From: Betaproteobacteria bacterium
GTDB lineage: Bacteria > Pseudomonadota > Gammaproteobacteria > Burkholderiales > SG8-41
Reading direction: 5' to 3'
Length of the DNA stretch: 64,000 nucleotides
Assembly: GCA_021730905.1 (NCBI GenBank)
Contig: JAKFYK010000036.1
Coordinates: 227,734-291,733, forward strand
Below the pieces are notes generated by a model that ran no database searches, was not told the DNA's origin, and worked only from the letters and a program-made list of their open reading frames with translations. A program made the position numbers and the translations under genes. Shown in pieces: positions 27,681 to 50,597 of the stretch. How positions within the stretch are numbered: the stretch's first letter is position 1; every line of letters begins with the position of its first letter.

Positions 27681-27690
27681 AGGACAATCA

Positions 27691-28535: not shown

Positions 28536-29297
28536 ATGCCGTTCTACGAAAAAGGCAACGTCCGCATCCACTACGAAGAAACCGGCTCCGGCTTCCCGTT
28601 GTTGATCATCGCCGGTGGCGGGTTGAACTCGAACATCTCCTACTTCACCGGTCACGCGCCGTTTAACGCGATGGGGGAGTTCAAGGGCGAGTACCGCTGC
28701 ATCGCGGCGGACCTGCGCAATGCCAACGGCGGCGATTCGTCCGGCCCGCTCGAGATCGACCGGCCGTGGGACTCGTACACCGATGATCATCTCGGCCTGA
28801 TGGATCACCTGGGCATCGATAAGTTCATGGTGATGGGCTTTTGTATCGGTGGCCCCTTCATCTGGAATCTGCTGAAGCGGGCACCCGGACGTGTCGTCGC
28901 CGCAGTGCTGGCGCAGCCCAGCGGGAGCCGTCCGGAAATGCGCGACCTTTTCTACAACAACAACATGACCAAGTGGGGTCCAGGGCTGTGCGAACGCCGT
29001 TCCGATATTACGATGGCGACCGTCGACAAATTCCTCACCAAGATGTACCGCACCAACCCCGACTTCGTGTTCACCGTGACGCGCGATTTCGTGCGCGCCT
29101 GCCAGACGCCCATACTGGTCCTGCCAGACGATGTCCCGTCGCACCCGTACGCCATTGCCATGGAGTCCGTGATGCTCGCGCCGAAATCCGAAGTAAGCCT
29201 CTACCCGTGGCAGGAACCCAAGGAACGAATTCCCGTCGTGGTGCGCCAGGTACGTTCCTTCCTGCGCGCGCATCGACCTGCGGCGGCGGCCCGCTGA
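28536..29297 (+). CDS. Alpha/beta-hydrolase fold protein with Cys in the nucleophile elbow (paralog 1)
   Basis: ORF 28341..29297 trimmed to ATG 28536 (AAGGAG RBS). MPFYEKGNVRIHYEETGSGFPLLIIAGGG. Elbow VMGFCIGGP (GxCxG). ...LVLPDDVPSHP. Confidence 0.8.
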   Translation: MPFYEKGNVRIHYEETGSGFPLLIIAGGGLNSNISYFTGHAPFNAMGEFKGEYRCIAADLRNANGGDSSGPLEIDRPWDSYTDDHLGLMDHLGIDKFMVMGFCIGGPFIWNLLKRAPGRVVAAVLAQPSGSRPEMRDLFYNNNMTKWGPGLCERRSDITMATVDKFLTKMYRTNPDFVFTVTRDFVRACQTPILVLPDDVPSHPYAIAMESVMLAPKSEVSLYPWQEPKERIPVVVRQVRSFLRAHRPAAAAR

Positions 29298-29329
29298 CAC
29301 TGCCAGCCCACGGACAATCCGCTGCGGGT

Positions 29330-30112
29330 TTAGCCCAAGGTCGAGTTAAAGGCACCACCATCCAGCAGCAAGTTTTGCCCGACGATGAATCCCGAGGATG
29401 CCGCGCACAGAAATGCGCATGCCTCGCCGAATTCATACGGATCGCCGACGCGGCCGGCAGGGTTGGTCTTTGCACGCTCGGCAAGGATTTCTTCGAACGG
29501 ACGATTGGCCTTGCGCGCCGCCTCCACCAGTCCTGAGCGCAGCCGGTCGGTCAGGAACGGGCCGGGTAGCAGGCCGTTGATCGTGACATTATGCCGCGCC
29601 ACCTGCCGCGCCAGACCGCCAATGAACCCGGTGAGGCCGGCACGCGCGCCGTTGGACATGCCGAGTTCGGGAATCGGCGACTTCACCGATCCCGAGGTGA
29701 TGTTGACGATGCGGCCAAACTTGCGCGCGATCATGCCATCGACTACGGACTTGATCAGCATGATAGGCGTGATCATGTTGCCGTTTACCGCCTTCATCCA
29801 GTCGGCCTCGCCCCACTCGCGAAAATCCCCGCGCGGGGGGCCACCGGCGTTGTTCACCAGAATGTCCGGGGCCGGGCAGGCCGCCAGCACCTTCGCGCGG
29901 CCTTCCGGCGTGGTGATATCGGCGGCGACCGCTGTGACCATACGCCCCGTCGCGGCACGAATTTCCGCAGCGGTGGCTTCGAGTTCACTCGCCGTACGCG
30001 AATTAATCACTAAATCGACGCCGTTCCTCGCCAGCGACATCGCACAAGCCTTGCCCAGCCCTTTGCTTGCGGCGCAAATGATCGCCTTTTTGTCCTTAAT
30101 GCCTAAATCCAT
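29330..30112 (-). CDS. SDR family oxidoreductase
   Basis: KKAIICAASKGLGKACA glycine-rich motif. ...NNAGGPP.... Confidence 0.85.
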   Translation of the reverse strand: MDLGIKDKKAIICAASKGLGKACAMSLARNGVDLVINSRTASELEATAAEIRAATGRMVTAVAADITTPEGRAKVLAACPAPDILVNNAGGPPRGDFREWGEADWMKAVNGNMITPIMLIKSVVDGMIARKFGRIVNITSGSVKSPIPELGMSNGARAGLTGFIGGLARQVARHNVTINGLLPGPFLTDRLRSGLVEAARKANRPFEEILAERAKTNPAGRVGDPYEFGEACAFLCAASSGFIVGQNLLLDGGAFNSTLG

Positions 30113-30299
30113 GGTTCCGCTCCTTGCTTAATTTTGTATTGCGAAATCCTTCAGTCCAAAAAATGCGCGCGGGTACAGTTTGTTGAGTGTGGTTCGTGAG
30201 CGCGCTGTGCTTTGCCCATCCTCAATAAATCATCGGCCACGGCATCGGTTAACATCTCCATATTAGCTGAAGCGGCTGATGACCGGAGGAAAGTCAGTG

Positions 30300-31286
30300 A
30301 TGAGCATGGTGATCAAGCGATGTCGCGCGTTGACCTTCACGTTGGCAATCATAGCCTGTTACTTCCCCGCAACGTCCCCGGCGCAGGGCTATCCCGCCAA
30401 ACCCGTCCGCTACATCGTGCCCTTTCCCGCAGGGGGATCGCCCGACATCATTGCCCGCACAATCGCTGACCGATTCACACGAATGTGGGGCCAGCAGGTC
30501 CTGGTGGACAACCGGGCAGGGGCGGGCGGGACCGTGGGCGCCACCTTCGCCGCCAAGTCGCCGGCCGACGGCTACACGCTGTTTCAGTGCAACATCGCTT
30601 CCAGCGCGATTGCCGAGTCTCTGTACGTGAAAATGCCGTACGACCACCAGCGCGACTTTGCGCCGCTCTCCCGTATCGGTCTGACCCCGAACGTCCTGGT
30701 CGTGCACCCGTCGCTGCCGGTACGCTCTGTGAAGGAATTCATCACATACGCGAAGGCCAACCCGGGCAAGCTCTCCTACGGCACGTCAGCTGCCGGCAGT
30801 TCGCAACTGCTGACGATGGAGCTGTTCAAGCTCACGGCGAAGATCGATGTCGTGTTCGTCCCTTACAAAGGTGCGCCACAGTCGCTTTCCGACACCATCG
30901 GAGGCCAGATTCCCGCCACCGTGCAGTCGGCACCGGGAGTACTCTCGGTAATTCAGAGTGAGCGCGTGCGTGCGCTCGCGGTGACGAGCCTGAAGCGCAT
31001 ACCGCAGTTGCCTTCGGTGCCGACTGTGCACGAGACTGTGCTCCCCGGATTCGAAGTGAACTCCTGGTACGGACTGTGCGCGCCGGCCGGCACGCCCGCG
31101 CCCATCCTCGACAAGGTTCACGCCGATCTCACCGCGGTGTTGCGCGTGCCGGAGATCCAGCAGCGATTCAAGGAATTGGTGATCGAAGTCGCCCCCACCA
31201 GCCGTGAAGAATTCGCGCGGTTCATTCATGCGGAAGCCGCACGCTGGGGGCGGGTGATCAAAGACGCCGGCATCGCGCAACAGTAG
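30300..31286 (+). CDS. Bug/TctC-family substrate-binding protein
   Basis: ORF 30279..31286 trimmed to ATG 30300 (GGAGGA RBS). ...ATSPAQ, then GYPAKPVRYIVPFPAGGSPD. Confidence 0.9.
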   Translation: MSMVIKRCRALTFTLAIIACYFPATSPAQGYPAKPVRYIVPFPAGGSPDIIARTIADRFTRMWGQQVLVDNRAGAGGTVGATFAAKSPADGYTLFQCNIASSAIAESLYVKMPYDHQRDFAPLSRIGLTPNVLVVHPSLPVRSVKEFITYAKANPGKLSYGTSAAGSSQLLTMELFKLTAKIDVVFVPYKGAPQSLSDTIGGQIPATVQSAPGVLSVIQSERVRALAVTSLKRIPQLPSVPTVHETVLPGFEVNSWYGLCAPAGTPAPILDKVHADLTAVLRVPEIQQRFKELVIEVAPTSREEFARFIHAEAARWGRVIKDAGIAQQ

Positions 31287-31472
31287 CGTGCAGCGGACGA
31301 CCGCAATCGGGAAAATTTGCTTTTGGCCTGCTAGCGCATGCGAAAATTTGCGCGGTTGACCGGTTGCCGGACCACCGCTACATTGTCCGTTCGTGCAAGT
31401 GGTGCGTAGAATTTCTACCCCATACCCCCTTTGCGTTGAATTGTCCTTTCCAAGATCACACGAGGCTCCTTC

Positions 31473-32150
31473 ATGTTCTGCGAAACCAAAGATCTCTCGC
31501 GCGAGGCGCTCAAAGCCCTCGGACTTGCCTTCAATCCCTTTAAAGCCGTGGTCGTGCCGCGGCCGATCGGGTGGGTCACAACCCTGGACCGCAATGGTGT
31601 CGTGAATCTCGCGCCGTACTCCTTTTTCAACGCGGTGTCGTCGGATCCGCCGATGGTGTTCTACGGCGCGAATGGAACCCACGCTGCGGACGATGGAGAA
31701 AAGGATTCTTTACGCAACGTGCGCGAGACCGGCGAGTTTGTATGTAATCTGGTGACCTGGGAGCTGCGCCACCAAATGAACGATACTGCCACGCCTGCGC
31801 CCCACGGCGTGGATGAGATGAAGGAAGTGGGGATCGCCCAGTTGCCGTCCCGCCTCGTCAAACCGCCGCGGGTGGCCGCCTCACCTGCCCATCTGGAATG
31901 CAAGCTGCACCAATTCGTTGAGCTGCCCGCGGATCCGCGCTCGGGCAAACGCAATGTGATGGTGATTGGCCACGTGGTCGCGATACACATTGACGACACA
32001 TTCATCGTCGACGGTCGCTTCGACACCGCCCGCGCCCGGCCTGTCGCCAGACTAGGCTACATGGACTATGCGGTGGTCACGCAATCCTTCGAGATCAAGC
32101 GCCCGAGTTGGCCGCTTGCGCGCAAACCCGAATCGGTTGAGACGTCATAG
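31473..32150 (+). CDS. Flavin reductase-like (FMN-binding split barrel) protein
   Basis: FKAVVVPRPIGWVTTLDRNGVVNLAPYSFFNAVSSDPPMV. Confidence 0.8.
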   Translation: MFCETKDLSREALKALGLAFNPFKAVVVPRPIGWVTTLDRNGVVNLAPYSFFNAVSSDPPMVFYGANGTHAADDGEKDSLRNVRETGEFVCNLVTWELRHQMNDTATPAPHGVDEMKEVGIAQLPSRLVKPPRVAASPAHLECKLHQFVELPADPRSGKRNVMVIGHVVAIHIDDTFIVDGRFDTARARPVARLGYMDYAVVTQSFEIKRPSWPLARKPESVETS

Positions 32151-32212
32151 CTCCGCGCCCGGCGCCTGAGCTTGACGGCATCCCAAGGTAAATCTCAAAA
32201 AAGGTGAACAGG

Positions 32213-33397
32213 ATGATGTTTCCGAAATTAGAAGACGCGCAGAACATTTTCGACCTGCGGGATATCGCCAAGCAGCGCCTGCCAAGGTGGCTGTTCGAAT
32301 TCGTCGACCGCGGCACCGAAGATGAAGTGGCGCTACACAACAACCGCGAGGCGTTCGAACGCATCAAGCTGCGGCCACGCATGCTGGTGGATGTTTCCGG
32401 CCGCAAGCTTGACACCACGATTTACGGCAAAGAGCACAAGATGCCGATAGGCATCGCGCCCACCGGCGCCGCCGGCATGATGTGGTATCGCGGTGAGCTG
32501 GAGCTCGCGCGCGCGGCCAAGGCTGCCGGCATTCCCTTTTCGCTTGCCACCGGTTCCATCACCAGCATGGAGAAAGTCGCCGGCGAAGTCGGCGGCACGC
32601 TGTGGATGCAGCTCTATATGTGGGCCGACCGCAAGCTTTCGCACCAGGTCGTGCGCCGTGCCGAAGCCGCGGGTTTCGAAGCTCTGCTGGTGACGGTGGA
32701 TGGCGCGGTTGCCGGTAACCGCGAGTACAACCGGCGCAACGGCTACTCGGTGCCGTTCAAGTACAACAGCAAGAACACCATCGATGTACTCACGCATCCG
32801 GGCTGGATGATCAACGTGCTGGGGCGTTATATCGCCAACGGCGGCATGCCCACGCGCGAAAATTTTCCCGACGAGTTGAGGGGCAGCAAGATCACCACGG
32901 CCTACGGCGGCACCAAGGAAACCCGCAGCGATTCGCTCAACTGGGACGACTTGAAGGCGCTGCGCGATATCTGGCCCCACAAGCTGCTGGTGAAGGGGCT
33001 GCTGCATCCCGACGATGCGTTGAAGTCGCTGGAATACGGCGCCGACGGCATCATCGTCTCCAACCATGGCGGACGCAACTGCGATGCCGCGCCCGCACCC
33101 ATCGAAGTGTTGCCGGAAATCGTCAAGGCGGTGGGCGATCGCACCACGGTCATCTTTGACAGTGGCGTGCGCCGCGGCAGCGACGTGGTGAAGGCGCTGG
33201 CGCTGGGAGCGAAGATGGTGCTGATCGGACGCAGCACGCTGTATGGCACTGCCGCCGGGGGCGAAGCGGGCGCTGCCCGGGCGCTGGATATCTATCGCGG
33301 CGAAATCAGTCGCGGCATGGCCAATATTTCCTGCACCCGGGTGTCCGAGATCGGACCGCAGCATGTCGCTTTCCAGCGAGACTGGAGCGGCACATGA
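32213..33397 (+). CDS. FMN-dependent alpha-hydroxy acid oxidase/dehydrogenase (LldD/glycolate oxidase family)
   Basis: ORF 32204..33397. ATG 32213 preferred (AAGG 8 nt upstream). ...REAFERIKLRPRML..., VSNHGGRN, FDSGVRRGSDV. Confidence 0.85.
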   Translation: MMFPKLEDAQNIFDLRDIAKQRLPRWLFEFVDRGTEDEVALHNNREAFERIKLRPRMLVDVSGRKLDTTIYGKEHKMPIGIAPTGAAGMMWYRGELELARAAKAAGIPFSLATGSITSMEKVAGEVGGTLWMQLYMWADRKLSHQVVRRAEAAGFEALLVTVDGAVAGNREYNRRNGYSVPFKYNSKNTIDVLTHPGWMINVLGRYIANGGMPTRENFPDELRGSKITTAYGGTKETRSDSLNWDDLKALRDIWPHKLLVKGLLHPDDALKSLEYGADGIIVSNHGGRNCDAAPAPIEVLPEIVKAVGDRTTVIFDSGVRRGSDVVKALALGAKMVLIGRSTLYGTAAGGEAGAARALDIYRGEISRGMANISCTRVSEIGPQHVAFQRDWSGT

Positions 33398-33425
33398 AGA
33401 AGCTATTGGAATAGCCCGGCAGCCA

Positions 33426-35132
33426 TCACCCGCCCGCCAAATCCCTCCCCGCTTCCTCGATCAACGCATCAAATGTTTCCGGCACGCGCACCATGCGGCC
33501 GACGACGGCGGGGCTGTTGCCCTGCAGCCAGAACGAATGCGTCGGATGCCCGCCGCCGGCGACGACGAGTATCAGATTCTCCGGCCTGGAGGTAATCGGC
33601 CACATCTCCCTGTCGATACTGTCGCGCGCGGATTGATCGTGCGCAATTTCAATCCACGCGCGACCACCGGTGCGTTTGATCTGTTCCTGCGGGATGCGCG
33701 AGTGGTTGACGAGAAATTCGCGGATTTTCGGCTTGGTCCAACCCAGGTCCGCGAGCGCCCCGGCGACCACTCGCGTGAGCAGCATGGCGCCCGGGGTGCC
33801 TTCTTCGTAGCCGTGCAGGTAGTGATAGCTGGGCACAGCAAGAAAGCCTGCCATACGATGCAAACCCTGTTCGGCATCTTCCTGCTTGGTTTCCTTTTGC
33901 GCACCGCGCCGCACGATGTTGGTCGCGCCCGTGGAAAAAAACAGCGATACCGAATTGCTGCCCTGGGTAAAACCGTGGCGCTCCTGCGCGTGTGTCGGCC
34001 AGCCTTCGGGCAATCCCGCTTCGTCTTCGGCAAACACAATATTGTTGTAACGGTTGTTGCCCCACGGCGCCATGGTGCCGGTGCCGGGCAGCGCGCCGCC
34101 AAGATTCTGTTGCATCTGGCGCAGCGCGCGGCCTATGCTCGCACCCGCCGGGAATTGCGGATCGGGGCCGAGGCAACCGAAACCGGAATTGAGCTTGATC
34201 TGCCTGGCGATTGGCCCGTTGACCACTACCACCGGAAACGGCGCGCCCGAGGTCGCCTGCGCGAGCTCGCTGCGCAGCGATGGATCGAGAAACGCATCTG
34301 TGGCTGCGATCAGGATCGGCAGATATTCGGGCCGTCCGCCTGCCATCGCCAGCGCGATGGCGCATGCCTCGACCGTGACAATGCCGCCGCGCGGCGGGAA
34401 TTTGCCCAGTACGTGCGTGCGTGGCAGCGGCGTGCCCCGCAGCATCCAGTCCACGCGCTCGCGCGTCGCCGGCCACAGCGGCATGCCGTCGCCCCACAAC
34501 TTTGCGATGAACAGATTGTTGGCCTTGGCCAGCGCGTCCTCGTAGGTCGCCCCTTCGACGCTCAGCATGGCGCTGCCGCCCACTTTGATGGACTTGGCTT
34601 CCGCACGCGTGAGGCCGTCATATAACTCCTGCCTGCGCGCCTTGAGCGGCGCCAGGTCCGCGTCGGGTAAGAATGTCTCGATCGGGAACGTCACCATCGG
34701 TACATTGGGATCAACGTTGAGCCCTGACACCGCGTTTTTCACCACGCCAACAAAATCCTTGCGCGTGATGGTGACAGTGGGTATGCCTTCTGCTTCGATT
34801 CTGGCGGCTGCACGGCCGCACGCTGTGGAGCACGCCCCTCAGGCCGCGTTGCCGATGATCACGGCATCGACGTCGCTCTCCTTGACGAGCTTGGCAACTT
34901 CAGCGTTGCCGATCAGCGTGTTGCCCTGCGGGAAACGGTCGATGGGCAGCACTTCAACGCCGGGATAATCTTCTTCGAGCATGCTCTTGACCAGCGGCAG
35001 CATGCGGTACGCCTGCCATTGCTCGTTGGACACGAAGCCAATGCGCTTGCCGGCAAGCGACGCGAGTCGCGGCGCATGCGGTTTGGCGGTTTCGAGCGCG
35101 CCGGAGGGATCGAAAAATTCGAGTTTGACCAT
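33426..35132 (-). CDS. Candidate selenoprotein: UGSC-type module (Sec at codon 98, TGA 34841-34839) fused to a ~440-aa uncharacterised domain
   Basis: Track ORFs 34839..35132 and 33426..34745 share one frame, with a single TGA and no other stop between them. Reads ...VDAVIIGNAA-U-GACSTACGRAAARIEAEGIPTVTITRKDFVGVVKNAVSG.... AGGAGA RBS before ATG 35132. Confidence 0.65.
34804..34819 (-). other. Weak SECIS-like hairpin downstream of the UGA
   Basis: GCGGC-CGUGCA-GCCGC lies 20-35 nt after the UGA, with GU in the loop. Only 5 bp, so marginal. Confidence 0.3.
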
Positions 35133-35156
35133 AGCTATTTTCTCCTGTTGAATGAA

Positions 35157-35441: not shown

Positions 35442-35634
35442 AAACCCTCTTCAATGGCAGCCGATTGCCTTGCGGCTATTTTGCCACGGCGCGGGAAGGA
35501 ACCTCGACAACATCGTTTGCGCCCTGCCCCGCTTTTCCGCGGAACCGCGCGTGCGGCATGCTGCGATGCTGGACGTGCACCTTCGTCAGTGAAATAATTT
35601 CCCGCAGCATCGGCCGTTACACAGAGGAAACATC

Positions 35635-36135: not shown

Positions 36136-36160
36136 CTGGAACCCATTTCAAAAATGAGTT

Positions 36161-37144
36161 TTAATCAACGCCGATTTTCCCTGCCTTGATCACCTTCGCA
36201 TAACGCGCGATTTCGCTGGCGAGATGATTGCCGAGCTCTTCGGGCGTGCTGCCGACCGGCTCGCCGCCTTCGCGCGCGATAAAGTCGCGGATGTCGGGCG
36301 ATTTGAGTGCATCGACGGTGACGCCGTTCAGCCGGGTGACGATATCGCGCGGCGTTTTCGCAGGGAGAAACAGACCGAACCAGTTATCCGATTCGAAATC
36401 CGCATACATCGACAGCATGGTCGGCAGCTGCGGATACACGCTTGACGGATTGCGCGTGGTGACTGCAAGCCCGCGCAACTTGCCATTGTCGAGATGCTGC
36501 TTGATAGTGGTGAGCGTGGAAAAAGTGAAATCGACTTCGCCGCCAAGTATCGCCGTGGTGCCGTGCCCGCCGCCCTTGTAGGCAATGGCCACCACGTTGA
36601 TTCCGGTCATTTGTTTGAGCATTTCGAGCGCGATGTGGCTGGTGGTGCCGGCGCCGTTATGCCCGCCGTTCAGTCCGGTCTTGCTGCGCTTGGCAAGTGC
36701 CACCAGTTCACGCACCGATCGCGCAGGCACGCTCGGATGCACTGTCACCACCAGCGGCGATGACGAGAGCCATGTGACCGGCACCAGATCGCGCAGCGGA
36801 TCGAACTTGGTGCGCGCGGCAAACAACGTGGCGTTCACCGACAGCGACGCCGACGTGAGCAACACGGTGTAGCCGTCGGCGGGCGCGCGCGCGACAAGTT
36901 CGGCGCCGATCATGCCGCTGGCGCCGACCCGGTTGTCCACCACGAACGGCTGGCCCAGCGTTTCGTGAAACTTTTTCGACAGCAGCCGCCCCTGGATATC
37001 GCTGCTGCCGCCGGGCGTAAACGGTACGACGATGCGCACGGTTTTCGCGGGCCAGTTTTGCGCGGCTGCAGGTACTGCGATGGCTGCCGTAACCATCGCG
37101 ACGGCTGCCACGCGCAGCAGGGCTAACTTCAGATCATTTTGCAA
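36161..37144 (-). CDS. Bug/TctC-family substrate-binding protein
   Basis: Signal ...VPAAAQ, then NWPAKTVRIVVPFTPGGSSD. Confidence 0.9.
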   Translation of the reverse strand: MQNDLKLALLRVAAVAMVTAAIAVPAAAQNWPAKTVRIVVPFTPGGSSDIQGRLLSKKFHETLGQPFVVDNRVGASGMIGAELVARAPADGYTVLLTSASLSVNATLFAARTKFDPLRDLVPVTWLSSSPLVVTVHPSVPARSVRELVALAKRSKTGLNGGHNGAGTTSHIALEMLKQMTGINVVAIAYKGGGHGTTAILGGEVDFTFSTLTTIKQHLDNGKLRGLAVTTRNPSSVYPQLPTMLSMYADFESDNWFGLFLPAKTPRDIVTRLNGVTVDALKSPDIRDFIAREGGEPVGSTPEELGNHLASEIARYAKVIKAGKIGVD

Positions 37145-37270: not shown

Positions 37271-37280
37271 ACATATTTAT

Positions 37281-37376: not shown

Positions 37377-38216
37377 TTGAACACGCATCAAATTCCGCAA
37401 GCGGCGCGCTGTGCATGTGCCTGCATGCTGCTCGCGCCATCGGCGGCGCTTGCCAATTCCGGCATCGGCTATTTCATGGTGCTACTGCCGGTGATGATTG
37501 TCGCGTTGTTGCCGGTCATTCCGCTTGAAGCGGTCGTGCTCGCGCGCCTGCTCAAACTGCCGTTCAAGCGTGCGTTATATCTGGCATTCATCGCAAATCT
37601 GTGGTCAACGCTTGCCGGCATCGTGCTTGGTATTGTCATCGATGTGACACTGATGGGGTTGACGGGCTCATCGGGCGCGGAGTTTACGCGCGGAGCGGCG
37701 TTGGTCATGCTGGTGCCAATGTTCTTCATCACCTGGGGGCTTGAATACCGCTTGCTCAAGAAACATGTCGTCGCGTTGCCCGCGACGCGCGTACGCAGGT
37801 CTGTGTTTGCCGCCAATCTGCTTTCGTACGCGGCCATGATGGCGTGCGTGTTGATATTTCTGCCCGAGCGAAGCCCGACCATGCTGCGCGCCTACCTGTC
37901 CGAGGCGCTGCTTGTCACGTCAGCACTCAGAACGCCGGTAGAGGAATTCTGGCGGCTGCATAAACGCTTTCCGGCCGACCTCAAGGAACTCGGCAACCCC
38001 GGCATCACTCCTCCGATAGATCCGAAGCACAGCATAAGTCTCGAGTCGAACGGGCGTATCACATCGCACATTCATCGCCCGGAAATCACGGAACTGCATG
38101 GCAAGCGCGTGCAATCATGGCCCGTGGTGCAAGACGACACGTTGATATGGAAGTGCGGGTCACCCGACCTCGATCCACGCCTGTTGCCGCTGGCGTGCCG
38201 CGAGCGAGCACCATGA
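37377..38216 (+). CDS. Polytopic membrane domain fused to a type IV pilin-like globular domain
   Basis: TTG start (uncertain). About 5 hydrophobic segments. Then ...IFLPERSPTMLRAYLSEALLVTSALRTPVEEFWRLHKRFP...LHGKRVQSWPVVQDDTLIWKCGSPDLDPRLLPLACRE, which mirrors the pilin alpha1-C, beta-sheet and C-terminal disulfide loop. No G/FTLIE prepilin leader. Confidence 0.65.
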   Translation: MNTHQIPQAARCACACMLLAPSAALANSGIGYFMVLLPVMIVALLPVIPLEAVVLARLLKLPFKRALYLAFIANLWSTLAGIVLGIVIDVTLMGLTGSSGAEFTRGAALVMLVPMFFITWGLEYRLLKKHVVALPATRVRRSVFAANLLSYAAMMACVLIFLPERSPTMLRAYLSEALLVTSALRTPVEEFWRLHKRFPADLKELGNPGITPPIDPKHSISLESNGRITSHIHRPEITELHGKRVQSWPVVQDDTLIWKCGSPDLDPRLLPLACRERAP

Positions 38217-39088: not shown

Positions 39089-39089
39089 C

Positions 39090-39482: not shown

Positions 39483-39534
39483 ACGACAAACATCGGCGCA
39501 TTTGCTGCGCTAGCTTCGCGGCATCCGCCATTTC

Positions 39535-40422
39535 ATGTCAGCCGCAGACTCCCGCGCCCGCACGCTTGCCGTTGTCGCGTTGCTCGCCGGCGCCACGTGC
39601 ATCGGCACCTCGGCGCTGTTCGTCAAGGTGAGCGAAACCGGACCGATATCCACCGCGTTCTGGCGCGTGCTCTTGGCACTGCCATTCTTGTGGGCGTGGG
39701 CATGGATGGATCAACGCAAATTCACGACCGTGCAAGCCAGCCCACGCGGCTTGATGTTCGCTGCGGGATTTTTCTTCGCAGGCGATCTGGCGGTATGGCA
39801 CTGGTCGATTGTGCTGACCTCGGTCGCCAACGCGGTGCTGCTCGCCAATCTCGCGCCGATATTCGTCACGCTGGTGGTGTGGCTGCTATGGCGCAAGAAA
39901 CCAACGCTGATGTTTCTCGCCGGGCTCGCAGCAGCGCTGGCAGGTGTAATGCTGATGGTTGGCGGTGATTTCTCGCACACCGATGGTCGCGCGCTGCTGG
40001 GAGATGCGCTGGGCGTGGTGACCGCGATGTTTTACGCTGCGTATCAACTGACGGTGAAGCGGCTACGCGGCACGGTGAGCACGGCGCGCATCATGGCAAC
40101 GACCAGTGTGGTGACCGCGGCAATTTTGCTGCCGCTTGCGTGGCTGTCGGGCGAACTGTTTTTCCCGGTCTCCACGACGGGTTGGTTGAAAGTATTCGGC
40201 CTTGCGCTGATTTCACAAGTTGCCGGGCAAAGCCTGATCGCTTATGCGATGGCGCATTTACCGGCGACGCTGTCTTCGGTGGGGCTGCTTTTGCAGCCGG
40301 TGATGGCCGGCCTGTTTGCGTGGATACTATTGGGCGAGACGCTGGGCGCCGTTGCGATAGCCGGTGCTGTGCTGGTGCTGATCGGCATACGCATCGCTAC
40401 GCAGGCTGAAAGCAGGATTTAA
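39535..40422 (+). CDS. DMT superfamily (EamA-like) transporter
   Basis: Ten hydrophobic segments in two EamA-like halves. Confidence 0.85.
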   Translation: MSAADSRARTLAVVALLAGATCIGTSALFVKVSETGPISTAFWRVLLALPFLWAWAWMDQRKFTTVQASPRGLMFAAGFFFAGDLAVWHWSIVLTSVANAVLLANLAPIFVTLVVWLLWRKKPTLMFLAGLAAALAGVMLMVGGDFSHTDGRALLGDALGVVTAMFYAAYQLTVKRLRGTVSTARIMATTSVVTAAILLPLAWLSGELFFPVSTTGWLKVFGLALISQVAGQSLIAYAMAHLPATLSSVGLLLQPVMAGLFAWILLGETLGAVAIAGAVLVLIGIRIATQAESRI

Positions 40423-40430
40423 ATTTATCA

Positions 40431-40447
40431 ATAAAAACAAATATTTA
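40431..40447 (+). repeat. AT-rich box S6
   Basis: ATAAAAACAAATATTTA. Starts 9 nt after the EamA stop (40422) and ends 14 nt before GTG 40461. Confidence 0.7.
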
Positions 40448-40460
40448 TAAAGGATTCACC

Positions 40461-41630
40461 GTGAAAATCGTTCGCGTACACGCTATTCCCATGTCCGACC
40501 CGGTGCCGCCGGAGCGACGTCACCGCACGGATCTCGGCACCAAGGTGAAAAGCGATGCGACGCTGATCCTCGTCGAAACCGACAACGGTTTGACCGGCAT
40601 GGGCGCAGCACTCGGCACGCCGCCGATCGTCGCCGCCATCGTCGAACATGAACTGGCGCCGGAAGTGGTCGGCGAAGATCCGATGTTCTCCGAGCGCATA
40701 TTTGAAAAAATGTACAACGGTTCGCGCGCCAAACCCGCGCTGGAGCGCGGCGTGCCGCAGGCCGAAACCAGCCGCCGCAACGGCATGGTGATGGAAGCGA
40801 TTTCCGGCGTGGACATCGCGATTTGGGATGTGAAGGCAAAAGCGCTGGGCATACCGGTGTATCAGGCGCTGGGCGCGGTGCGAAGTTCGGTGCGCGCGTA
40901 TGGCAGTGGCGGCTGGGCGCCGGGCAACGAGGCCGAAGCGGAGTTGGGCGGTTATGCAGCAAAGGGTTTTACCGCGGTGAAAATGCGCGTGGTGGGCCGT
41001 GACGGATTTTCCATCGAGAACTGCGTGCGCAGAGTCGAAGCCGCGCGACGCGGCATCGGCCCCAATGTCGAACTCATGGTTGACGCGCACGCCTCGCTGG
41101 AAACGCCAGTGGCGATACGCCTCGCCAAGGCGCTGGAACCGTACAACATCGCGTGGTTCGAAGAGCCGGTGTCGCCCGACAATCACGCCGGCATGGCGGA
41201 AGTGCGCGCCTCGACACGCATCCCCATCGCGTCGGGCGAGCGCGAGTTTTCGCGTTACGGTTTTCGCAGCATGATTGAGCACAAGGCCATCGACATCGCG
41301 CAGCCCGACGTGGCGCGTGCCGGCGGCCTTACCGAAATCCGCCGCATCGCTGCGCTCACAGCCGCATATGACCTGCGTCTTGCGCCACATGCGTGGGGCG
41401 CCGGCGTGCTGTTCGCCGCCAGCATTCATGTAGCAATGGCCGCCGCAAATTGCCACATCCTTGAAGTCAGCCAAGGCTACATGCCGATGATGAACGAGCT
41501 GTTCAACGAGCCGTACGACATCCGCGACGGTTATGTGCATGCGCCGGAGCGGCCGGGGCTGGGCTTTACCCTGCGCAAGGATGCACTCGAACGATTCAAA
41601 TATGTGGACGGGCCGGAGTATGCATTTTAG
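40461..41630 (+). CDS. Enolase superfamily enzyme (mandelate racemase/muconate lactonizing enzyme family)
   Basis: GTG start after AAGGA. ...AISGVDIAIWDVKAKALG..., ...VDAHAS..., WFEEP, ...ASGEREF.... Confidence 0.85.
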   Translation: MKIVRVHAIPMSDPVPPERRHRTDLGTKVKSDATLILVETDNGLTGMGAALGTPPIVAAIVEHELAPEVVGEDPMFSERIFEKMYNGSRAKPALERGVPQAETSRRNGMVMEAISGVDIAIWDVKAKALGIPVYQALGAVRSSVRAYGSGGWAPGNEAEAELGGYAAKGFTAVKMRVVGRDGFSIENCVRRVEAARRGIGPNVELMVDAHASLETPVAIRLAKALEPYNIAWFEEPVSPDNHAGMAEVRASTRIPIASGEREFSRYGFRSMIEHKAIDIAQPDVARAGGLTEIRRIAALTAAYDLRLAPHAWGAGVLFAASIHVAMAAANCHILEVSQGYMPMMNELFNEPYDIRDGYVHAPERPGLGFTLRKDALERFKYVDGPEYAF

Positions 41631-41686
41631 CGCTTCGCCGGTTTGATGTTAAATTTCATCCTCTTCACCCATACACGGAGAACGCC

Positions 41687-42421
41687 ATGATCGAACTGCA
41701 CTCGTCCCCCACCCCCAACGGCCAGAAAGTCATGATCATGCTTGAGGAGCTGGGCATCGAATGGAAGCACATCGACGTCAACATCCGGCTCGGCGAGCAA
41801 TTCACGCCGCAGTACCTGAAGCTCTCCCCCAACAACCGCATCCCGACCATCGTCGATAGCGACGGCCCCGGCGGCGGACGCTACACCATGATGGAATCGG
41901 GTGCGATCCTGTTTTATCTCGCCGAGAAAAGCGGAAAATTTCTGCCGAAGGATGCGCGCAAGCGTTACGACGTGATGCAATGGCTGATATTCCAGATGGC
42001 GCACGTCGGCCCGATGTTCGGCCAGGCCAATCACTTCAACAACTACGTCAAGGAAAATACCAACGCGCCGCAGCAGTACGCGCAGGACCGCTACAACAAT
42101 GAATCGATCCGCCTTTACCGCGTGCTCGACAACCGCGCGCGCGAAAGCACGTGGATGGGCTGCGATGAATACACCATCGCCGACATGGCGATCTACCCGT
42201 GGACCAAGATGCACAAGGACCGCGGCATCACCGAGGCCGAGTATCCGAATTTCATGCGCTGGTACAAGGCGATGGAAGCGCGGCCCGCCGTTCAACGCAA
42301 CAACAAGATGGCCGCGGAAATCCGCGAACGCATGACCAAGGCGATGGAAGGCAAAAAAGCCATCAGCCTTTACGACACCAAGGACAACGCCGCGCGGCTG
42401 GCAGGCGCGACCAAAGCCTGA
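41687..42421 (+). CDS. Glutathione S-transferase (Nu-class, YfcG-like)
   Basis: MIELHSSPTPNGQKV...LSPNNRIPTIVD...ESGAILFYLAEKSG resembles YfcG. Confidence 0.85.
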   Translation: MIELHSSPTPNGQKVMIMLEELGIEWKHIDVNIRLGEQFTPQYLKLSPNNRIPTIVDSDGPGGGRYTMMESGAILFYLAEKSGKFLPKDARKRYDVMQWLIFQMAHVGPMFGQANHFNNYVKENTNAPQQYAQDRYNNESIRLYRVLDNRARESTWMGCDEYTIADMAIYPWTKMHKDRGITEAEYPNFMRWYKAMEARPAVQRNNKMAAEIRERMTKAMEGKKAISLYDTKDNAARLAGATKA

Positions 42422-42436
42422 CGCACGGAGGTCACC

Positions 42437-42850
42437 ATGCACATCGACGGCGCTTGTCATTGCGGCAATATCAGCTACGAAGCGGAGATCGACCCCGGCG
42501 CGGTGAGCATCTGCCATTGCGCCGATTGCCAGACGCTCACCGGCACGGCGTACCGCGTCAACGTGCGCGTGAAGAAGCAGGATTTCAAGCTGCGCGGCGG
42601 CGCACCGAAGATTTACGTAAAAACCGCCGAGAGCGGCAACAAACGTGCGCACGCATTCTGCCCCGAGTGCGGCACACCGATGTATTCGAGTTCGGTAGAT
42701 GCTGACCCGCAGGAATATGGCCTGCGCGTGGGCACCGCGCGGCAGCGCGCACAGTTGCCTCCGAAGAAACAGGGCTGGTGCCGCTCGGCGATGCCGTGGT
42801 CGGCGAACATCGAAGCGCTGCCCAAAACCATGACGCAGTTGCAGCGATGA
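42437..42850 (+). CDS. GFA (glutathione-dependent formaldehyde-activating / CENP-V) family protein
   Basis: GACHCGNISYE...ICHCADCQ...FCPECG. Zinc-cysteine pattern. Confidence 0.8.
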   Translation: MHIDGACHCGNISYEAEIDPGAVSICHCADCQTLTGTAYRVNVRVKKQDFKLRGGAPKIYVKTAESGNKRAHAFCPECGTPMYSSSVDADPQEYGLRVGTARQRAQLPPKKQGWCRSAMPWSANIEALPKTMTQLQR

Positions 42851-43539
42851 CAAAAGACATTGCTTTGATCGTCGGCGCCGGCAGCGGCCTCTCTGCTTCC
42901 ATCGCGCACGCGTTCACGCTCGAAGGCCTGAACTGCGTGCTCGCCGCACGCCGCACTGACAAACTGAAATCATTGTGCGACGAAATCAATGCCACCGCCA
43001 TCGCCTGCGACAGCGCACAGCCCGATCAGGTCAGCGCGCTATTCGCGCAACTCGATACGCTGTGCGATGCACCGGCGGTGGTGGTGTACAACGCCAGCGC
43101 CCGCGTGCGCGGCCCGCTGGTCGAACTGGACGCCAAGGCGGTGACAGACGCGATCAACGTGACCGCCTTGGGCGGTTTTCACGTCGCGCAGGCCGCCACC
43201 AAACGCATGCTGAAAAAAGGCGCCGGCACCATCATCTTCACCGGTGCATCGGCGAGTGTGAAAGGCTACGCGCAGTCGGCGACGTTTGCGATGGGGAAAT
43301 TCGCGCTGCGCGGGCTGGCGCAAAGCATGGCGCGCGAACTCGCGCCGCAAAATATCCATGTCGCGCACGTCGTGATTGACGGCGGTATCAGTTCGGCGCA
43401 ACGTCCAGTGCCAACGGATAAACCGGACAGCCTGCTCGATCCGGATGCCATCGCGCAGAGCTATGTGCACCTGCTCAAGCAACAGCGCAGCGCATGGACC
43501 TGGGAGATCGAAGTCAGGCCGTGGGTGGAGCGGTTCTAA
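42847..43539 (+). CDS. SDR family oxidoreductase
   Basis: ORF 42778..43539 trimmed to ATG 42847 (ATGA overlap with the GFA stop). ALIVGAGSGLSASIA. Confidence 0.85.
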   Translation: MTKDIALIVGAGSGLSASIAHAFTLEGLNCVLAARRTDKLKSLCDEINATAIACDSAQPDQVSALFAQLDTLCDAPAVVVYNASARVRGPLVELDAKAVTDAINVTALGGFHVAQAATKRMLKKGAGTIIFTGASASVKGYAQSATFAMGKFALRGLAQSMARELAPQNIHVAHVVIDGGISSAQRPVPTDKPDSLLDPDAIAQSYVHLLKQQRSAWTWEIEVRPWVERF

Positions 43540-43594
43540 GCGCGTAGCTCGCGCGCGCAAAGGGCACCATACTGCCTTACCAAGGGGGATAGCC

Positions 43595-44341
43595 ATGCCG
43601 TTCTACGAAAAGGGAAACGTCCGCATCCGCTACGAAGAGGCCGGCTCCGGCTTTCCTTTGTTCATCATTTACGGCGGAGGACTCAACTCAGGCGTGAACT
43701 ATCCCAAAGCACCATTCGACGCGATGGCGGAGTTCAAATCGGAATACCGCTGCATCGCGATGGACCTGCGCAACGCCAACGGCGGGCAATCCACCGGCCC
43801 GCTGGATTTCGATTCGCCGTGGGACGCGCACACCGGCGACCAGCTCGGTGTGCTCGATCACCTGGGCGTCGACAAATTCATGGTGATGGGGTTTTGCATC
43901 GGCAATCCGCTGATCTGGAACATGCAGAGACGCGCGCCCGGACGCATCGTCGCATCAGTGCATGCGCAGCCCAGCGGCGTCGATCCCAATTACCCGGACT
44001 ACTTCATCAAGAACAATTTGAAAATCTGGGCGCCGGGCCTCGTCGCCAGCCGGCCGGACATCAACATGGAGATGGTCAACCGATTCCTCAACAAGATGTA
44101 CGGCGGCGTCGATTTCGTGCTCACCGTGCCGCGCGCTTTCGTCAGCGCCTGCCAGACGCCCATACTCGTGCTGCCGGACAACGTGCCGTCACACCCGTAC
44201 GCCACGGCAATGGAAATGGCGCATCTCGCGCCGAATTCGCAAGTGAGCCTGTTTCCGTGGAAGGACAAGCCGGAGAATGTGAAGCTGGCGGTGCGGCACA
44301 TACGCACGTTTCTTAAGGCGAATCGACCGGATGCAGTTTGA
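43595..44341 (+). CDS. Alpha/beta-hydrolase fold protein with Cys in the nucleophile elbow (paralog 2)
   Basis: ORF 43376..44341 trimmed to ATG 43595. MPFYEKGNVRIRYEEAGSGFPLFIIYGGG. Elbow VMGFCIGNP. ...LVLPDNVPSHP. Confidence 0.8.
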   Translation: MPFYEKGNVRIRYEEAGSGFPLFIIYGGGLNSGVNYPKAPFDAMAEFKSEYRCIAMDLRNANGGQSTGPLDFDSPWDAHTGDQLGVLDHLGVDKFMVMGFCIGNPLIWNMQRRAPGRIVASVHAQPSGVDPNYPDYFIKNNLKIWAPGLVASRPDINMEMVNRFLNKMYGGVDFVLTVPRAFVSACQTPILVLPDNVPSHPYATAMEMAHLAPNSQVSLFPWKDKPENVKLAVRHIRTFLKANRPDAV

Positions 44342-44704
44342 GCGAAGCGCCGATTGATTATTACTCACGCGAAGATTTAACAGAGCGAGGTTTTTTGGTA
44401 CCGCTTTTGTAGTCCAAGAAATCAAAATTTGACAAGCCTTATCGACTACTCTTTTTAGTATGCACCGCTTTCCAAAAAGGATATTTAAACAAATTCCAAG
44501 CAAGTGAAATATTGAGCCGGGGTTACTCCAAGCATTAGGGCCTTTCCGATATGTGTAGACGCTAGACGTTTCTAAACCTTTTTCGGCGCGTTTAATTAAT
44601 TCTTCAAGAAAAGCGTCTCGATTGTCCTCATTGTTTGGAGTTTGTATCATCGAACGTAACCATCTATTGTGAGCAAAACTCGAAGAACTTGATTTTTCTG
44701 TAAA

Positions 44705-45007
44705 TTACGCTTCGACCAGTTCCGTATGCAACTTCAATCCCAGTGCCTTACAAACTTTCATCACCATCGCAAAACTCGGATTTCCCTCCGGTGACAATGC
44801 CTTGTAAAGCCCCTCGCGCGTAAGTCCAGTTTCGCGTGCGAGATGCAACATGCCGCGCGCGCGGGCGATATCGGCGAGCGCTGCGACTACCTGTGTCGGT
44901 TCACCGTCAGACTCGTCGATCACCGCTTGCAGATAGAGCGCGCAATCCTGTTTCGTTTGCAGGTAAGCGACCGCGTCGTACGAACGTGTAGTCAGTTTTT
45001 TAGCCAT
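44705..45007 (-). CDS. Addiction-module antidote protein (HigA-like HTH antitoxin), no cognate toxin gene upstream
   Basis: ...YLQAVIDESDGEPTQVVAALADIARARGMLHLARETGLTREGLYKALSPEGNPSFAMVMKVCKALGLKLH matches the antidote family pattern as I recall it. Confidence 0.8.
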   Translation of the reverse strand: MAKKLTTRSYDAVAYLQTKQDCALYLQAVIDESDGEPTQVVAALADIARARGMLHLARETGLTREGLYKALSPEGNPSFAMVMKVCKALGLKLHTELVEA

Positions 45008-45019
45008 GACTCACTCCAG

Positions 45020-45050
45020 CAACCGCACGTTAACCGGTGGTTTGCGGTTG
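45020..45050 (-). promoter_or_regulatory. Operator-like inverted repeat upstream of the antitoxin gene
   Basis: CAACCGCA-N15-TGCGGTTG, with an inner ACCGGT palindrome. Lies 13 nt upstream of ATG 45007. Confidence 0.3.
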
Positions 45051-45096
45051 TCAATGTTGGTTGTGCAAGCCCCACTTCAGCATATAAAAATATGTA

Positions 45097-45113
45097 ATAA
45101 AAACAAATACTTA
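45097..45113 (+). repeat. AT-rich box S7
   Basis: ATAAAAACAAATACTTA at the right edge of the low-GC islet, between the antitoxin start (45007) and hydrolase paralog 3. Confidence 0.7.
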
Positions 45114-45281
45114 CAAACATCATGGTTCACGGTCACGTAAATCTCATGTCGCGGCCTAGATACGCAGCCAACTTGACTCCGCATCTACGTAAGTAGAATC
45201 TTCTTACCCTTGCAGGTCCGGCTCCGGCAAGCCGCGCAGATGATGCCGCCGGTCCTCGCGTCCAACAAAAGAGAGCCCACG

Positions 45282-46139
45282 ATGGATACCACCAGACGCA
45301 CTTTGCTGACCACCGGCGCCGCAGCAATTGCCGCCGCCGCCGCACCGCAGGCTTTTGCGCAACAAACCGCAAAAGGAGATACCGCAATGCAGTTTTACCA
45401 GAGGGGGAATGTTCGCATCCGCTATCAGGAGATTGGTTCGGGTTTTCCGGTATTGATCATTCCCGGCGGCGGGCAGAACTCCACCATCGCATGGGGCTCG
45501 AACAATGCGCCGTTTAATTCCACCGAGGAATTCAAAAACGAATACCGCTGCATCACTGCTGATTTGCGCAACGCGCACAGCGGAGAATCCTTCGGCCCGC
45601 TGGAAATCGACCGGCCTTGGGATTCGTACACCGACGATCACCTCGGCCTGATGGATCACCTCGGGGCCAAGCGTTTCATGGTGATCGGCTACTGCATCGG
45701 CGGCCCGTTCATCGCCAACCTGATCAAGCGCGCGCCGGAGCGCGTGGTTGCGGCGGTGATCGCGCAACCCGTCGGCTTCAACAAGAAAACACCGTACATG
45801 TACGACGCCAGCATGAAAAACTGGGCACCCGGGCTGCTCAAGCGCAGGCCCGACCTGACGATGGACATGATCGACAAGTTCCTCACGCGCATGTACCTCA
45901 CCGACGCCGACTTTCTATTCACGGTAACACGCGATTTCATGCGCGCATGCCAGACGCCCGTGCTGGTGCTGCCGGACGATACACCGGCGCATCCGTACGA
46001 CGTCTCGATCGACTGCGCCATGCTCGCGCCCAGGGCTGAGATGACTTTTTATCCGTGGAAAGACACCAAGGACAAGATTCCACTCGCGGTGCGCCACGTG
46101 CGCTCGTTCATGCGCGCACATCGGCCGGCAACGGCTTGA
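45282..46139 (+). CDS. Alpha/beta-hydrolase fold protein with Cys in the nucleophile elbow (paralog 3, Tat signal)
   Basis: ORF 45210..46139 trimmed to ATG 45282. MDTTRRTLLTTGAAAIAAAAAPQAFA (twin-Arg). Then MQFYQRGNVRIRYQEIGSGFPVLIIPGGG aligns to residue 1 of paralogs 1 and 2. Elbow VIGYCIGGP. Confidence 0.8.
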   Translation: MDTTRRTLLTTGAAAIAAAAAPQAFAQQTAKGDTAMQFYQRGNVRIRYQEIGSGFPVLIIPGGGQNSTIAWGSNNAPFNSTEEFKNEYRCITADLRNAHSGESFGPLEIDRPWDSYTDDHLGLMDHLGAKRFMVIGYCIGGPFIANLIKRAPERVVAAVIAQPVGFNKKTPYMYDASMKNWAPGLLKRRPDLTMDMIDKFLTRMYLTDADFLFTVTRDFMRACQTPVLVLPDDTPAHPYDVSIDCAMLAPRAEMTFYPWKDTKDKIPLAVRHVRSFMRAHRPATA

Positions 46140-50587: not shown

Positions 50588-50597
50588 ACCGTCATCC

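Follow-up and report, generated by a model that had tools for sequence, protein, structure and literature searches.

Three paralogs with the α/β-hydrolase fold

Which catalytic center, if any, operates in an α/β-hydrolase that carries Cys in place of its nucleophile Ser? The question is raised by three genes in the 64,000-nt stretch of DNA analyzed here (the window), all on the forward strand and all uninterrupted open reading frames on translation. Paralog 1 (positions 28536 to 29297; 253 amino acids) and paralog 2 (43595 to 44341; 248 amino acids) lack a signal peptide, and paralog 3 (45282 to 46139) encodes a 285-amino-acid precursor. The initial annotation had these genes aligning end to end, and this was borne out: pairwise identity is 65% across the full-length alignment, with 104 invariant columns, a likeness far beyond chance. 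Exactly these three copies were identified in the window by tblastn. The ATG of paralog 1 at 28536 is preceded by a GGAG ribosome-binding site; homologs open with MPFYEKG, and relatives at 93% identity share the same start Met. Paralog 2 falls into a 90%-identity cluster of its own with 16 members. Residue numbers below refer to paralog 1 unless stated.

All three proteins are members of the α/β-hydrolase-fold superfamily, as the initial annotation had it, their Pfam Abhydrolase_1 (PF00561) scores, 44.5, 33.7, and 46.5 bits, all exceeding the 25.8-bit cut-off. The AlphaFold model of paralog 1 (pLDDT 95.8) has a canonical eight-strand core and a four-helix cap (residues about 131 to 190), with the GGG loop after β3 and Ile104, the residue after Cys103, located at the usual oxyanion-hole site. 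In the model of paralog 3 the fold begins at residue 37, and residues 1 to 34 have pLDDT values below 50. Fold matches were cap-bearing Abhydrolase_1 enzymes, and dienelactone hydrolase (DLH) was absent from the top 50. The nearest partial matches were lactonases, esterases, and C-C hydrolases for carboxylated substrates (PcaD, BphD, HsaD, and Est816). NCBIfam models for C-C hydrolases and enol-lactonases (TIGR03343, NF045632, and TIGR02427) gave 17 to 28 bits against cut-offs of 255 to 462, and no PhaC model was found among the Pfam or NCBIfam matches to the three paralogs.

A cysteine at the nucleophile elbow

The elbow reads G-(F/Y)-C-I-G in all three paralogs, the Cys being Cys103 in paralog 1 (codon TGT, 28842 to 28844), Cys101 in paralog 2 (43895 to 43897), and Cys138 in paralog 3 (45693 to 45695). 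In alignments with solved hydrolases, Cys103 falls on the nucleophile Ser: on Ser103 in CumD (which is Ala in the S103A crystal), on the nucleophile in BphD, and, using hhalign, on the nucleophile Ser of the P. fluorescens esterase (PFE). In the AlphaFold model of paralog 1 it lies between a strand (residues 97 to 102) and a helix (residues 105 to 115), as G101-F-C103-I-G105. The proposed replacement of Ser by Cys is thus upheld by both alignment and modeled position. The Cys is kept in all 294 aligned relatives and in 360 of 360 elbows. The only conserved Ser residues in the alignment of relatives, Ser32 and Ser68, each sit in an ordinary loop motif, so no conserved Ser is able to replace Cys103 at the catalytic position.

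Loss of the canonical histidine

Downstream of the elbow, all three paralogs carry the motifs LPD(D/N)xPxHP and (Y/F)PW(Q/K). The first includes the β7-loop motif D198-D-V-P-S-H203-P204 (29127 to 29147, forward strand), which holds the candidate acid as well as the sole candidate for a general base; its counterparts are Asp195 to His200 in paralog 2 (44177 to 44194) and Asp232 to His237 in paralog 3 (45975 to 45992). The second contains Pro224-Trp225 (29205 to 29210, forward strand), which occupies the loop after β8, the site of the canonical catalytic His; the Trp is Trp222 in paralog 2 and Trp259 in paralog 3. No conserved His was found in residues 215 to 232, after the last strand, among the relatives aligned, and Trp225 is present in 285 of 288 sequences. 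His203 is retained in 286 and Pro204 in 285 of the same 288, and the His of the β7-loop motif in 314 of 317 motifs. Conservation of the Cys and His spans representatives of 50%-identity clusters as well as a sister clade at 39 to 50% identity. The only other conserved His, His91, ends helix αB, and the same EHL is found in PFE.

An Asp is always found in the β7 loop, but its position depends on the clade: core-clade members have it at residue 198, sister-clade members at residue 200. Only the second of these, Asp200, matches the canonical acid in alignments, pairing with the catalytic Asp in the PhaZ structure 8ynv and in 7yii, and this places His203 at acid+3. The initial annotation had proposed this His as a candidate catalytic residue, but it is not the canonical one and shares the β7 loop with the Asp. 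As for the candidate Asp, the loop never lacks one, but the position is not conserved between clades and the residue may not be catalytic. With His203 in the acid loop and no His in the β8 loop, a classical Cys-His-Asp triad of the DLH or PhaC type is not present. Conservation instead points to loss of the canonical His, leaving His203 as the only candidate base. To our knowledge, a catalytic His outside the β8 loop is without precedent in this fold.

Covariation within the sister clade, a weak signal drawn from about 118 effective sequences, placed pair 199-224 in the top 20 and pairs 102-199 and 102-224 at ranks 93 and 125 of 15459. Position 224 thus covaries with both 102 and 199, couplings that weakly suggest contacts of the kind expected among the elbow, the acid loop, and the His loop. 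Two positions close to the elbow and pocket, 36 and 106, couple with position 202 beside His203, at ranks 6 and 449 respectively.

Tat signal and internal start of paralog 3

A 35-residue extension, MDTTRRTLLTTGAAAIAAAAAPQAFA-QQTAKGDTA, opens paralog 3; it contains a twin-arginine motif followed by a hydrophobic core and a cleavage motif, AFA. The predicted Tat signal peptide, MDTTRRTLLTTGAAAIAAAAAPQAFA, spans 45282 to 45359 on the forward strand and runs from T-R-R-T-L-L through TGAAAIAAAAAP to the AxA site, AFA-QQ. Pfam TAT_signal (PF10518) scored 14.5 bits, short of its 22.7-bit cut-off, and no match to TIGR01409 was obtained at E ≤ 1. A signal of the same design was identified in 63 of 163 core-clade relatives and at 58 of 80 genome loci, and that of paralog 3 is plausible, as previously proposed; the signal is missing from about 60% of the core clade and from nearly every sister-clade member.

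The proposal that one copy is periplasmic and two are cytoplasmic may nevertheless be too simple, as paralog 3 keeps an internal Shine-Dalgarno sequence (AAAGGAG, 45372 to 45378) and an in-frame ATG (45387 to 45389) at the start point of the signal-less paralogs. Among Tat-bearing relatives, the Shine-Dalgarno sequence was kept along with the ATG in 32 of 38, compared with 7 of 20 lacking the ATG (P = 3e−4); linker codons were strongly biased towards GGA and CAA. In paralog 3 and many exported relatives, a single gene may therefore give two isoforms.

Gene neighborhood and spread of the family

Each paralog lies beside a dehydrogenase gene. A short-chain dehydrogenase/reductase (SDR) gene (Pfam adh_short; 29330 to 30112, reverse strand) is convergent with paralog 1, and another (adh_short; 42778 to 43539, forward strand) ends 56 nt upstream of paralog 2. 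A D-2-hydroxyacid dehydrogenase gene (2-Hacid_dh_C; 46170 to 47132, forward strand) lies 30 nt downstream of paralog 3; its likely start is the ATG at 46170, with GAAGGAG as the ribosome-binding site, and the two genes are probably cotranscribed. Genes related to glutathione, GST and GFA, were also found near paralog 2 (41687 to 42850).

The association of each copy with an SDR or 2-hydroxyacid dehydrogenase, noted in the initial annotation, is true in the window but is not a feature of the family. A 2-Hacid_dh neighbor also occurs in the closest relative (L001), but not in the family in general: 138 Pfam families are represented among the 131 immediate neighbors of relatives, and the recurrent ones include neither dehydrogenase family. 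As the neighborhood is not conserved, the dehydrogenases say little about function, and gene context among the relatives offers no independent pointer to hydrolysis or substrate class. In Rhizobium indicum, a cultured host, the homolog lies within a LysR-controlled unit together with a TRAP carboxylate transporter.

With more than 8000 relatives, the paralogs belong to a very large, uncharacterized clade of soil-bacterial α/β-hydrolases. No curated model covering it was found in Pfam or NCBIfam, no close solved structure was identified, and a literature search returned neither a characterized member nor a paper on the family. Members from different phyla share 78 to 90% identity, which implies horizontal spread.

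Possible mechanism and alternatives

The reading we favor, to which we give slightly less than an even chance, is that the three proteins are thiol-dependent hydrolases with a rearranged catalytic center and a relocated base. The Cys103 thiolate would attack the carbonyl of a small ester, lactone, or thioester to form a thioester acyl-enzyme. His203, oriented by Asp198 (Asp200 in the sister clade), would act as general base in place of the lost canonical His, activating Cys103 and then the hydrolytic water. The substrate would probably bear a carboxylate; the pocket appears to be polar and anionic, judging from Asn62, Gln127, and two conserved cap residues, Arg155 and Trp147. Many relatives would be exported in folded form via the Tat pathway, as would paralog 3, whose internal start may give a cytoplasmic isoform as well; paralogs 1 and 2 would be cytoplasmic versions.

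Several other explanations were weighed. Non-hydrolytic thiol chemistry, with a Cys103 adduct serving PHA-synthase-like acyl transfer or a Michael-addition isomerase, lyase, or decarboxylase and His203 acting as acid/base, appears unlikely. The α/β-hydrolase fold also hosts lyases, decarboxylases, and dioxygenases, the G-F-C-I-G-G elbow is of the PhaC/DLH type, and loss of the canonical water-activating His might be expected if hydrolysis of the adduct were not the goal. The GST and GFA genes would fit such chemistry as well. However, the proteins, of 250 amino acids, lack PhaC-specific domains, partner genes that could supply an acyl donor are not conserved among relatives, and hydrolases are the closest matches in both structure and profile searches.

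Broken canonical triads and frequent Tat signals could also be accounted for if Cys103, His203, and the loop Asp, all conserved and all typical metal ligands, bound a metal ion or cofactor. The Tat pathway commonly carries cofactor-containing proteins, and here it would export a loaded, folded metalloenzyme or metal/ligand-binding protein. This is improbable, given that so many members lack the signal, that only three candidate ligands are available, one of which shifts position between clades, and that searches of Pfam and NCBIfam turned up neither a metal-site motif nor a metalloprotein family. We also know of no metal site at the nucleophile elbow in this fold.

It is less probable still that the proteins are pseudoenzymes or binding proteins with no catalytic activity. 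The missing canonical His and a weak Pfam match (E = 0.011) to Ndr, a non-catalytic family, would agree with loss of the triad, but that match is well under threshold, and chemistry at this site is favored by the fact that Cys103, His203, and the elbow glycines stay invariant even between clades sharing as little as 39% identity. That these are ordinary DLHs with a classical Cys-His-Asp triad, the model implied by the initial annotation, is very hard to sustain: beyond the G-x-C-x-G-G elbow and partial matches to Pfam DLH (PF01738) of 17.8, 12.7, and 20.5 bits, all below the gathering cut-off of 21 bits and confined to the elbow stretch (about 38 of 217 profile positions), it is contradicted by the absent His after the last strand and by the fold matches.

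A wider version of the favored thiol-hydrolase reading is put forward more tentatively, as a possibility about which we are rather doubtful. The family could represent an unrecognized design, in which a Cys nucleophile is combined with a base His moved from the β8 to the β7 loop, that has spread horizontally among dominant soil phyla and often yields a Tat-exported and a cytoplasmic isoform from one gene via an internal ribosome-binding site and start codon. If so, the enzymes would encounter an abundant substrate in both the cytoplasm and the periplasm.

Comparison with known systems

The best sequence and fold matches, BphD, CumD, HsaD, MhpC, and PcaD, share with the paralogs a common core, a helical cap, and the GGG loop after β3, at 16 to 21% identity. 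Both groups have a Trp in the β8 loop; in BphD, the Trp follows the catalytic His. These C-C hydrolases and enol-lactonases use a Ser nucleophile in a Ser-His-Asp triad, whereas in the paralogs the nucleophile is Cys, the catalytic His is replaced by Pro224, and the C-terminal half has diverged too far for alignment.

Dienelactone hydrolase (carboxymethylenebutenolidase), which acts on small carboxylated lactones, has the same fold and a Cys nucleophile in a G-x-C-x-G-G elbow. It lacks the four-helix cap, and its His follows the last strand, whereas the conserved His of the paralogs is at acid+3 in the β7 loop. PhaC and Cys-type intracellular PHB depolymerases carry a Cys nucleophile in a G-F-C-(V/I)-G-G elbow. 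PhaC has about 560 to 590 amino acids, an N-terminal domain, and the canonical Cys-Asp-His order, compared with 248 to 285 amino acids and no PhaC match for the paralogs.

We know of no report of a relocated catalytic His in the α/β-hydrolase fold, and the relocation proposed for the three paralogs is inferred from conservation. Haloalkane dehalogenases and lipases place the catalytic acid after β6 instead of β7 with the geometry kept, and so provide a precedent within the fold for a triad member changing loop; there it is the acid that has moved, and here it would be the His.

Three family members in the window

Paralog 1 (28536-29297), paralog 2 (43595-44341), and paralog 3 (45282-46139), all on the forward strand, are ORFs with uninterrupted translation, and tblastn identified exactly three copies of the family in the 64-kb window. 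As the initial annotation had proposed, they align end to end; they share 65% amino acid identity, 104 invariant columns, and the elbow motif G-(F/Y)-C-I-G, together with LPD(D/N)xPxHP and (Y/F)PW(Q/K); nucleotide identities were 66 to 74%. The start codons originally chosen were correct, as relatives start with MPFYEKG, and the upstream in-frame extensions of paralogs 1 and 2 were not signal-like. The closest loci were found in Burkholderiales and Betaproteobacteria metagenome-assembled genomes (MAGs), with 85 to 88% identity. Together with the many TctC genes of the window, these loci point to a betaproteobacterial (Burkholderiales) MAG as the most likely source. The window has a G+C content of 60%, and an Rfam scan of it gave no match to a regulatory RNA.

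Fold and nucleophile

All three paralogs passed the Pfam Abhydrolase_1 threshold. The match to the Pfam dienelactone hydrolase (DLH) model was confined to the elbow and below the cut-off, and NCBIfam matches (PcaD, BphD, HsaD, haloalkane dehalogenase, and a PHB depolymerase) were far sub-threshold. Using phmmer against solved structures, Cys103 (paralog 1 numbering is used throughout) aligned with the nucleophiles of BphD and CumD (GNSFGG; GNAFGG in the S103A crystal form). With hhalign it fell on the Ser of G-F-S-M-G-G in the Pseudomonas fluorescens esterase (PFE), and the N-terminal alignment agreed with an independent PDB search. An AlphaFold2 model built from 85 diverse relatives (mean pLDDT, 95.8; pTM, 0.93) placed beta5 at residues 97 to 102, followed by Cys103 and a helix at 105 to 115. 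Beta6 (120-126), a four-helix cap (138-188), beta7 (193-196), a further helix (205-214), beta8 (218-220), and the last helix (229-245) complete the predicted fold. The alignments and this strand-Cys-helix arrangement bear out the assignment of the Cys to the nucleophile elbow. Foldseek searches of the PDB with the model returned only generic cap-bearing alpha/beta-hydrolases (Est816, PcaD 2xua, CumD, HsaD, and valacyclovir hydrolase) at TM-scores of 0.64 to 0.74 and ≤21% identity, and no close relative with a solved structure was found.

Conserved residues of the catalytic centre

Judged from sequence conservation, the catalytic centre of this family is not canonical. Conservation was assessed across 295 full-length members, including a sister clade of divergent relatives (39 to 50% identity) from Dormibacterota, Solirubrobacterales, Dehalococcoidia, and Rhizobium; the window genes belong to the core clade. 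Cys103 was present in 294/294 sequences, His203 in 286/288 (with Pro204 in 285 of the same alignment), and Trp225 in 285/288. When every retrieved sequence and fragment was included, the Cys occurred in 360/360 elbows and the His in 314/317 beta7-loop motifs. Only two His residues are conserved in the family, His91 and His203. The former ends helix alpha-B within a D-H-L motif, and ordinary esterases have a His likewise (E-H-L in PFE). In classical members the catalytic His always lies in the loop that joins beta8 to the last helix, and no conserved His could be identified in that loop (L-Y-P-W-Q-E-P-K) in the family alignment. The classical Cys-His-Asp triad suggested by the initial annotation was therefore not upheld, as the conserved His203 lies in the beta7 loop and none follows beta8.

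Alignments to solved enzymes (profile and hhalign) ended after beta6 or just past the beta7 loop. As the C-terminal half could not be aligned, the canonical His position was set from secondary structure, these partial alignments, and covariation. In the partial alignments, Asp200 of the sister clade fell on the canonical acid of PhaZ 8ynv ('GDrDyvVP') and 7yii ('HGTeDsvvd'), and His203 matched a hydrophobic residue three positions past the canonical acid, directly before the conserved Pro. The core-clade Asp has moved to position 198 (LPDDxPxHP versus LPGxDxxHP in the sister clade). Covariation within the sister clade was weak (∼118 effective sequences). Position 102, next to the Cys, coupled with 199 (rank 93 of 15459) and 224 (rank 125), the pair 199-224 was in the top 20, and position 202, next to His203, coupled with 36 (rank 6) and 106 (rank 449); these weak signals fit the expected contacts. 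Lys226 was considered as a substitute base and rejected because paralog 1 has Gln at this position.

Distribution of the family

A word-indexed search returned at least 8000 matches, and all of the best 120 listed had ≥78% identity to paralog 1. Among 50%-identity cluster representatives, searched exhaustively, 285 matched at E ≤ 1e-30, mostly fragments of one tight cluster with a few full-length sequences at 39 to 47% identity. One-genome-per-species data contained 558 matching stretches, of which the best 80 were all from MAGs of Acidobacteriota, Alpha- and Betaproteobacteria, and Acidimicrobiia, on contigs that were in some cases megabase-length (up to 5 Mb). Among these 80 loci, median identities between phyla were 78 to 90%, with a maximum of 93.6% between Acidobacteriota and Acidimicrobiia; such values exclude vertical descent and imply horizontal exchange together with strong constraint. 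Several genomes carried more than one copy (L019/L020, L052/L060, and L061/L074). PLSDB gave no match at ≥60% identity, and the identities between phyla, on contigs of this length, imply a chromosomal, non-plasmid gene subject to extensive horizontal transfer. Three proteins predicted from metagenome contigs (P0001, P0006, and P0122) contain one and a half or two family copies head to tail, and could be read-through tandem paralogs or assembly chimeras.

Putative Tat signal and possible internal start site

The N-terminal extension of paralog 3 carries a T-R-R-T-L-L motif, an Ala-rich core, and an A-F-A site, and residues 1 to 34 were unstructured in the AlphaFold prediction. Signals of this design were found in 63/163 core-clade proteins and at 58/80 genome loci (the best 80 of 558). 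These motifs, their recurrence in relatives, and the unstructured N terminus make Tat export of paralog 3 likely. The signal proposed in the initial annotation was supported in these respects, although its Pfam Tat score (14.5 bits) was below the 22.7 threshold.

The linker between signal and fold (T-G-Q-G-G-A-A-M) is encoded by ACYGGGCAAGGAGGAGCTGCCATG, which provides a near-perfect Shine-Dalgarno (SD) sequence 7 to 8 nt before an in-frame ATG, exactly at the residue with which signal-less copies begin. In paralog 3 the corresponding elements are AAAGGAG (45372-45378, + strand) and the ATG at 45387-45389 (+ strand). Paralog 1 has a 5′ leader, ACTAAACAAGGAGAAAGCACCATG, homologous to this linker. 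An SD sequence (AAGGAGG) and in-frame ATG are conserved at the signal/fold junction of Tat-bearing loci (L002 to L078). The internal ATG was kept in 38/58 Tat-bearing genes, 32 of which (32/38) had a strong SD, compared with only 7/20 genes lacking the ATG (Fisher p = 3e-4) and a background rate of 6.4% of in-frame positions. Linker codons were also skewed, with GGA used for 58% of Gly (13% elsewhere; p = 1e-30) and CAA for 61% of Gln (17% elsewhere; p = 5e-10). The joint retention of SD and ATG suggests that one gene could yield two isoforms, exported and cytoplasmic. Either many Tat-bearing genes produce both, or signals have often been gained and lost around a fixed start. In an acidobacterial relative (L013, ∼5980-6003), an in-frame TGA in the linker CAATGAGGAG cuts off the signal region and leaves the short-form SD and ATG, an arrangement suggestive of signal loss in progress.

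Gene neighborhoods

Clustering of flanking genes at 80 loci revealed no conserved partner, with none present in more than six. Of the 138 Pfam families represented among the 131 immediate neighbors, the most frequent were Lactamase_B (7), TctC (6), and Flavin_Reduct (5); these counts were too low, and partly from related genomes, to guide interpretation. Neighbor strand was random, median gaps were ∼160 bp, and sister-clade contexts were equally heterogeneous. The SDR or 2-hydroxyacid dehydrogenase genes noted beside the paralogs are present in the window, but the 131 neighbors scanned gave no such family signature, and reading function from this adjacency was rejected as neighborhoods vary.

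In cultured Rhizobium indicum, plasmid pPR12A201, whose PLSDB record is unannotated, carries a family gene flanked by a divergent LysR regulator and a TRAP transporter. At this locus (L085, 1832-7748), the homolog (33% identity) has GGCIG, LMPGDDKMHP, and APWKG motifs, and the LysR/hydrolase/TRAP DctQM-DctP unit adjoins a GFO/IDH/MocA oxidoreductase gene. This locus is a possible genetic entry point.

Within the window, at least eight genes encode TctC/Bug-family periplasmic receptors (15520-21012, 30279-31286, 36161-37144, and 62155-63991), an expansion typical of Burkholderiales genomes. Two ORFs had no Pfam match, 33426-34745 (− strand; 439 amino acids, coding-like GC3) and 27538-28344 (+ strand; 268 amino acids), the latter ending 192 nt before paralog 1. 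The 279-amino-acid ORF at 37377-38216 is atypical of a pilin in that its type IV pilin domain is C-terminal and preceded by a long N-terminal extension. Paralog 3 is closely preceded by an AT-rich 160-nt stretch (45050-45210), which may be an insertion junction or promoter region and which comes after an addiction-module antidote-like gene (44705-45007, − strand). Directly downstream of the paralog 3/2-hydroxyacid dehydrogenase pair, 47220-51983 encodes a 1,002-amino-acid, four-GAF-domain histidine kinase and a sigma-54-dependent response regulator; by eye, no −24/−12 promoter was seen upstream of paralog 3.

Proposed mechanism and relationship to known systems

Our tentative preference, at somewhat under an even chance, is that the family comprises thiol hydrolases. 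The Cys103 thiolate would form a thioester with a small, probably carboxylate-bearing substrate, the GGG loop and Ile104 would stabilise the oxyanion, and His203, assisted by the loop Asp, would substitute for the lost canonical His. Thiol chemistry other than hydrolysis, for instance transfer or isomerisation, is an unlikely alternative. A metal or cofactor site would account for Tat export, and we consider it improbable; that these proteins are pseudoenzymes is more doubtful still. An ordinary dienelactone hydrolase, whose defining tests failed, is very improbable.

The alpha/beta-hydrolase fold is among the best-studied enzyme scaffolds, and its nucleophile-acid-His order is regarded as nearly universal. 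An invariant Cys and a new invariant His, without the canonical His, across thousands of members would represent a clear relocation of a catalytic residue and extend the short list of Cys-type alpha/beta-hydrolases. Dual localisation of a Tat substrate can be put to the test here through the internal start signal. Uncultured soil Acidobacteriota, Proteobacteria, and Actinobacteriota carry the family in abundance and exchange it among themselves, which makes an ecologically common substrate likely. Current pipelines label members 'alpha/beta hydrolase' or 'pimeloyl-ACP methyl ester carboxylesterase'; the latter is almost certainly wrong.

No description of the family was found in Pfam, NCBIfam, solved structures, or the literature, where searches for GxCxG, Cys-nucleophile, or Cys-His-Asp alpha/beta-hydrolases yielded nothing beyond papers on DLH, PhaC, and thioesterases. 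It is a genuine clade of the Cys type, very large and uncharacterised, in which the catalytic His has apparently been relocated and dual localisation is possible. It resembles DLH in its Cys elbow and the BphD/PcaD type in its scaffold, and belongs to neither group, as curated thresholds, nucleophile type, or His position fail. Overall, the family works most like a DLH Cys elbow grafted onto a BphD/PcaD-type scaffold.
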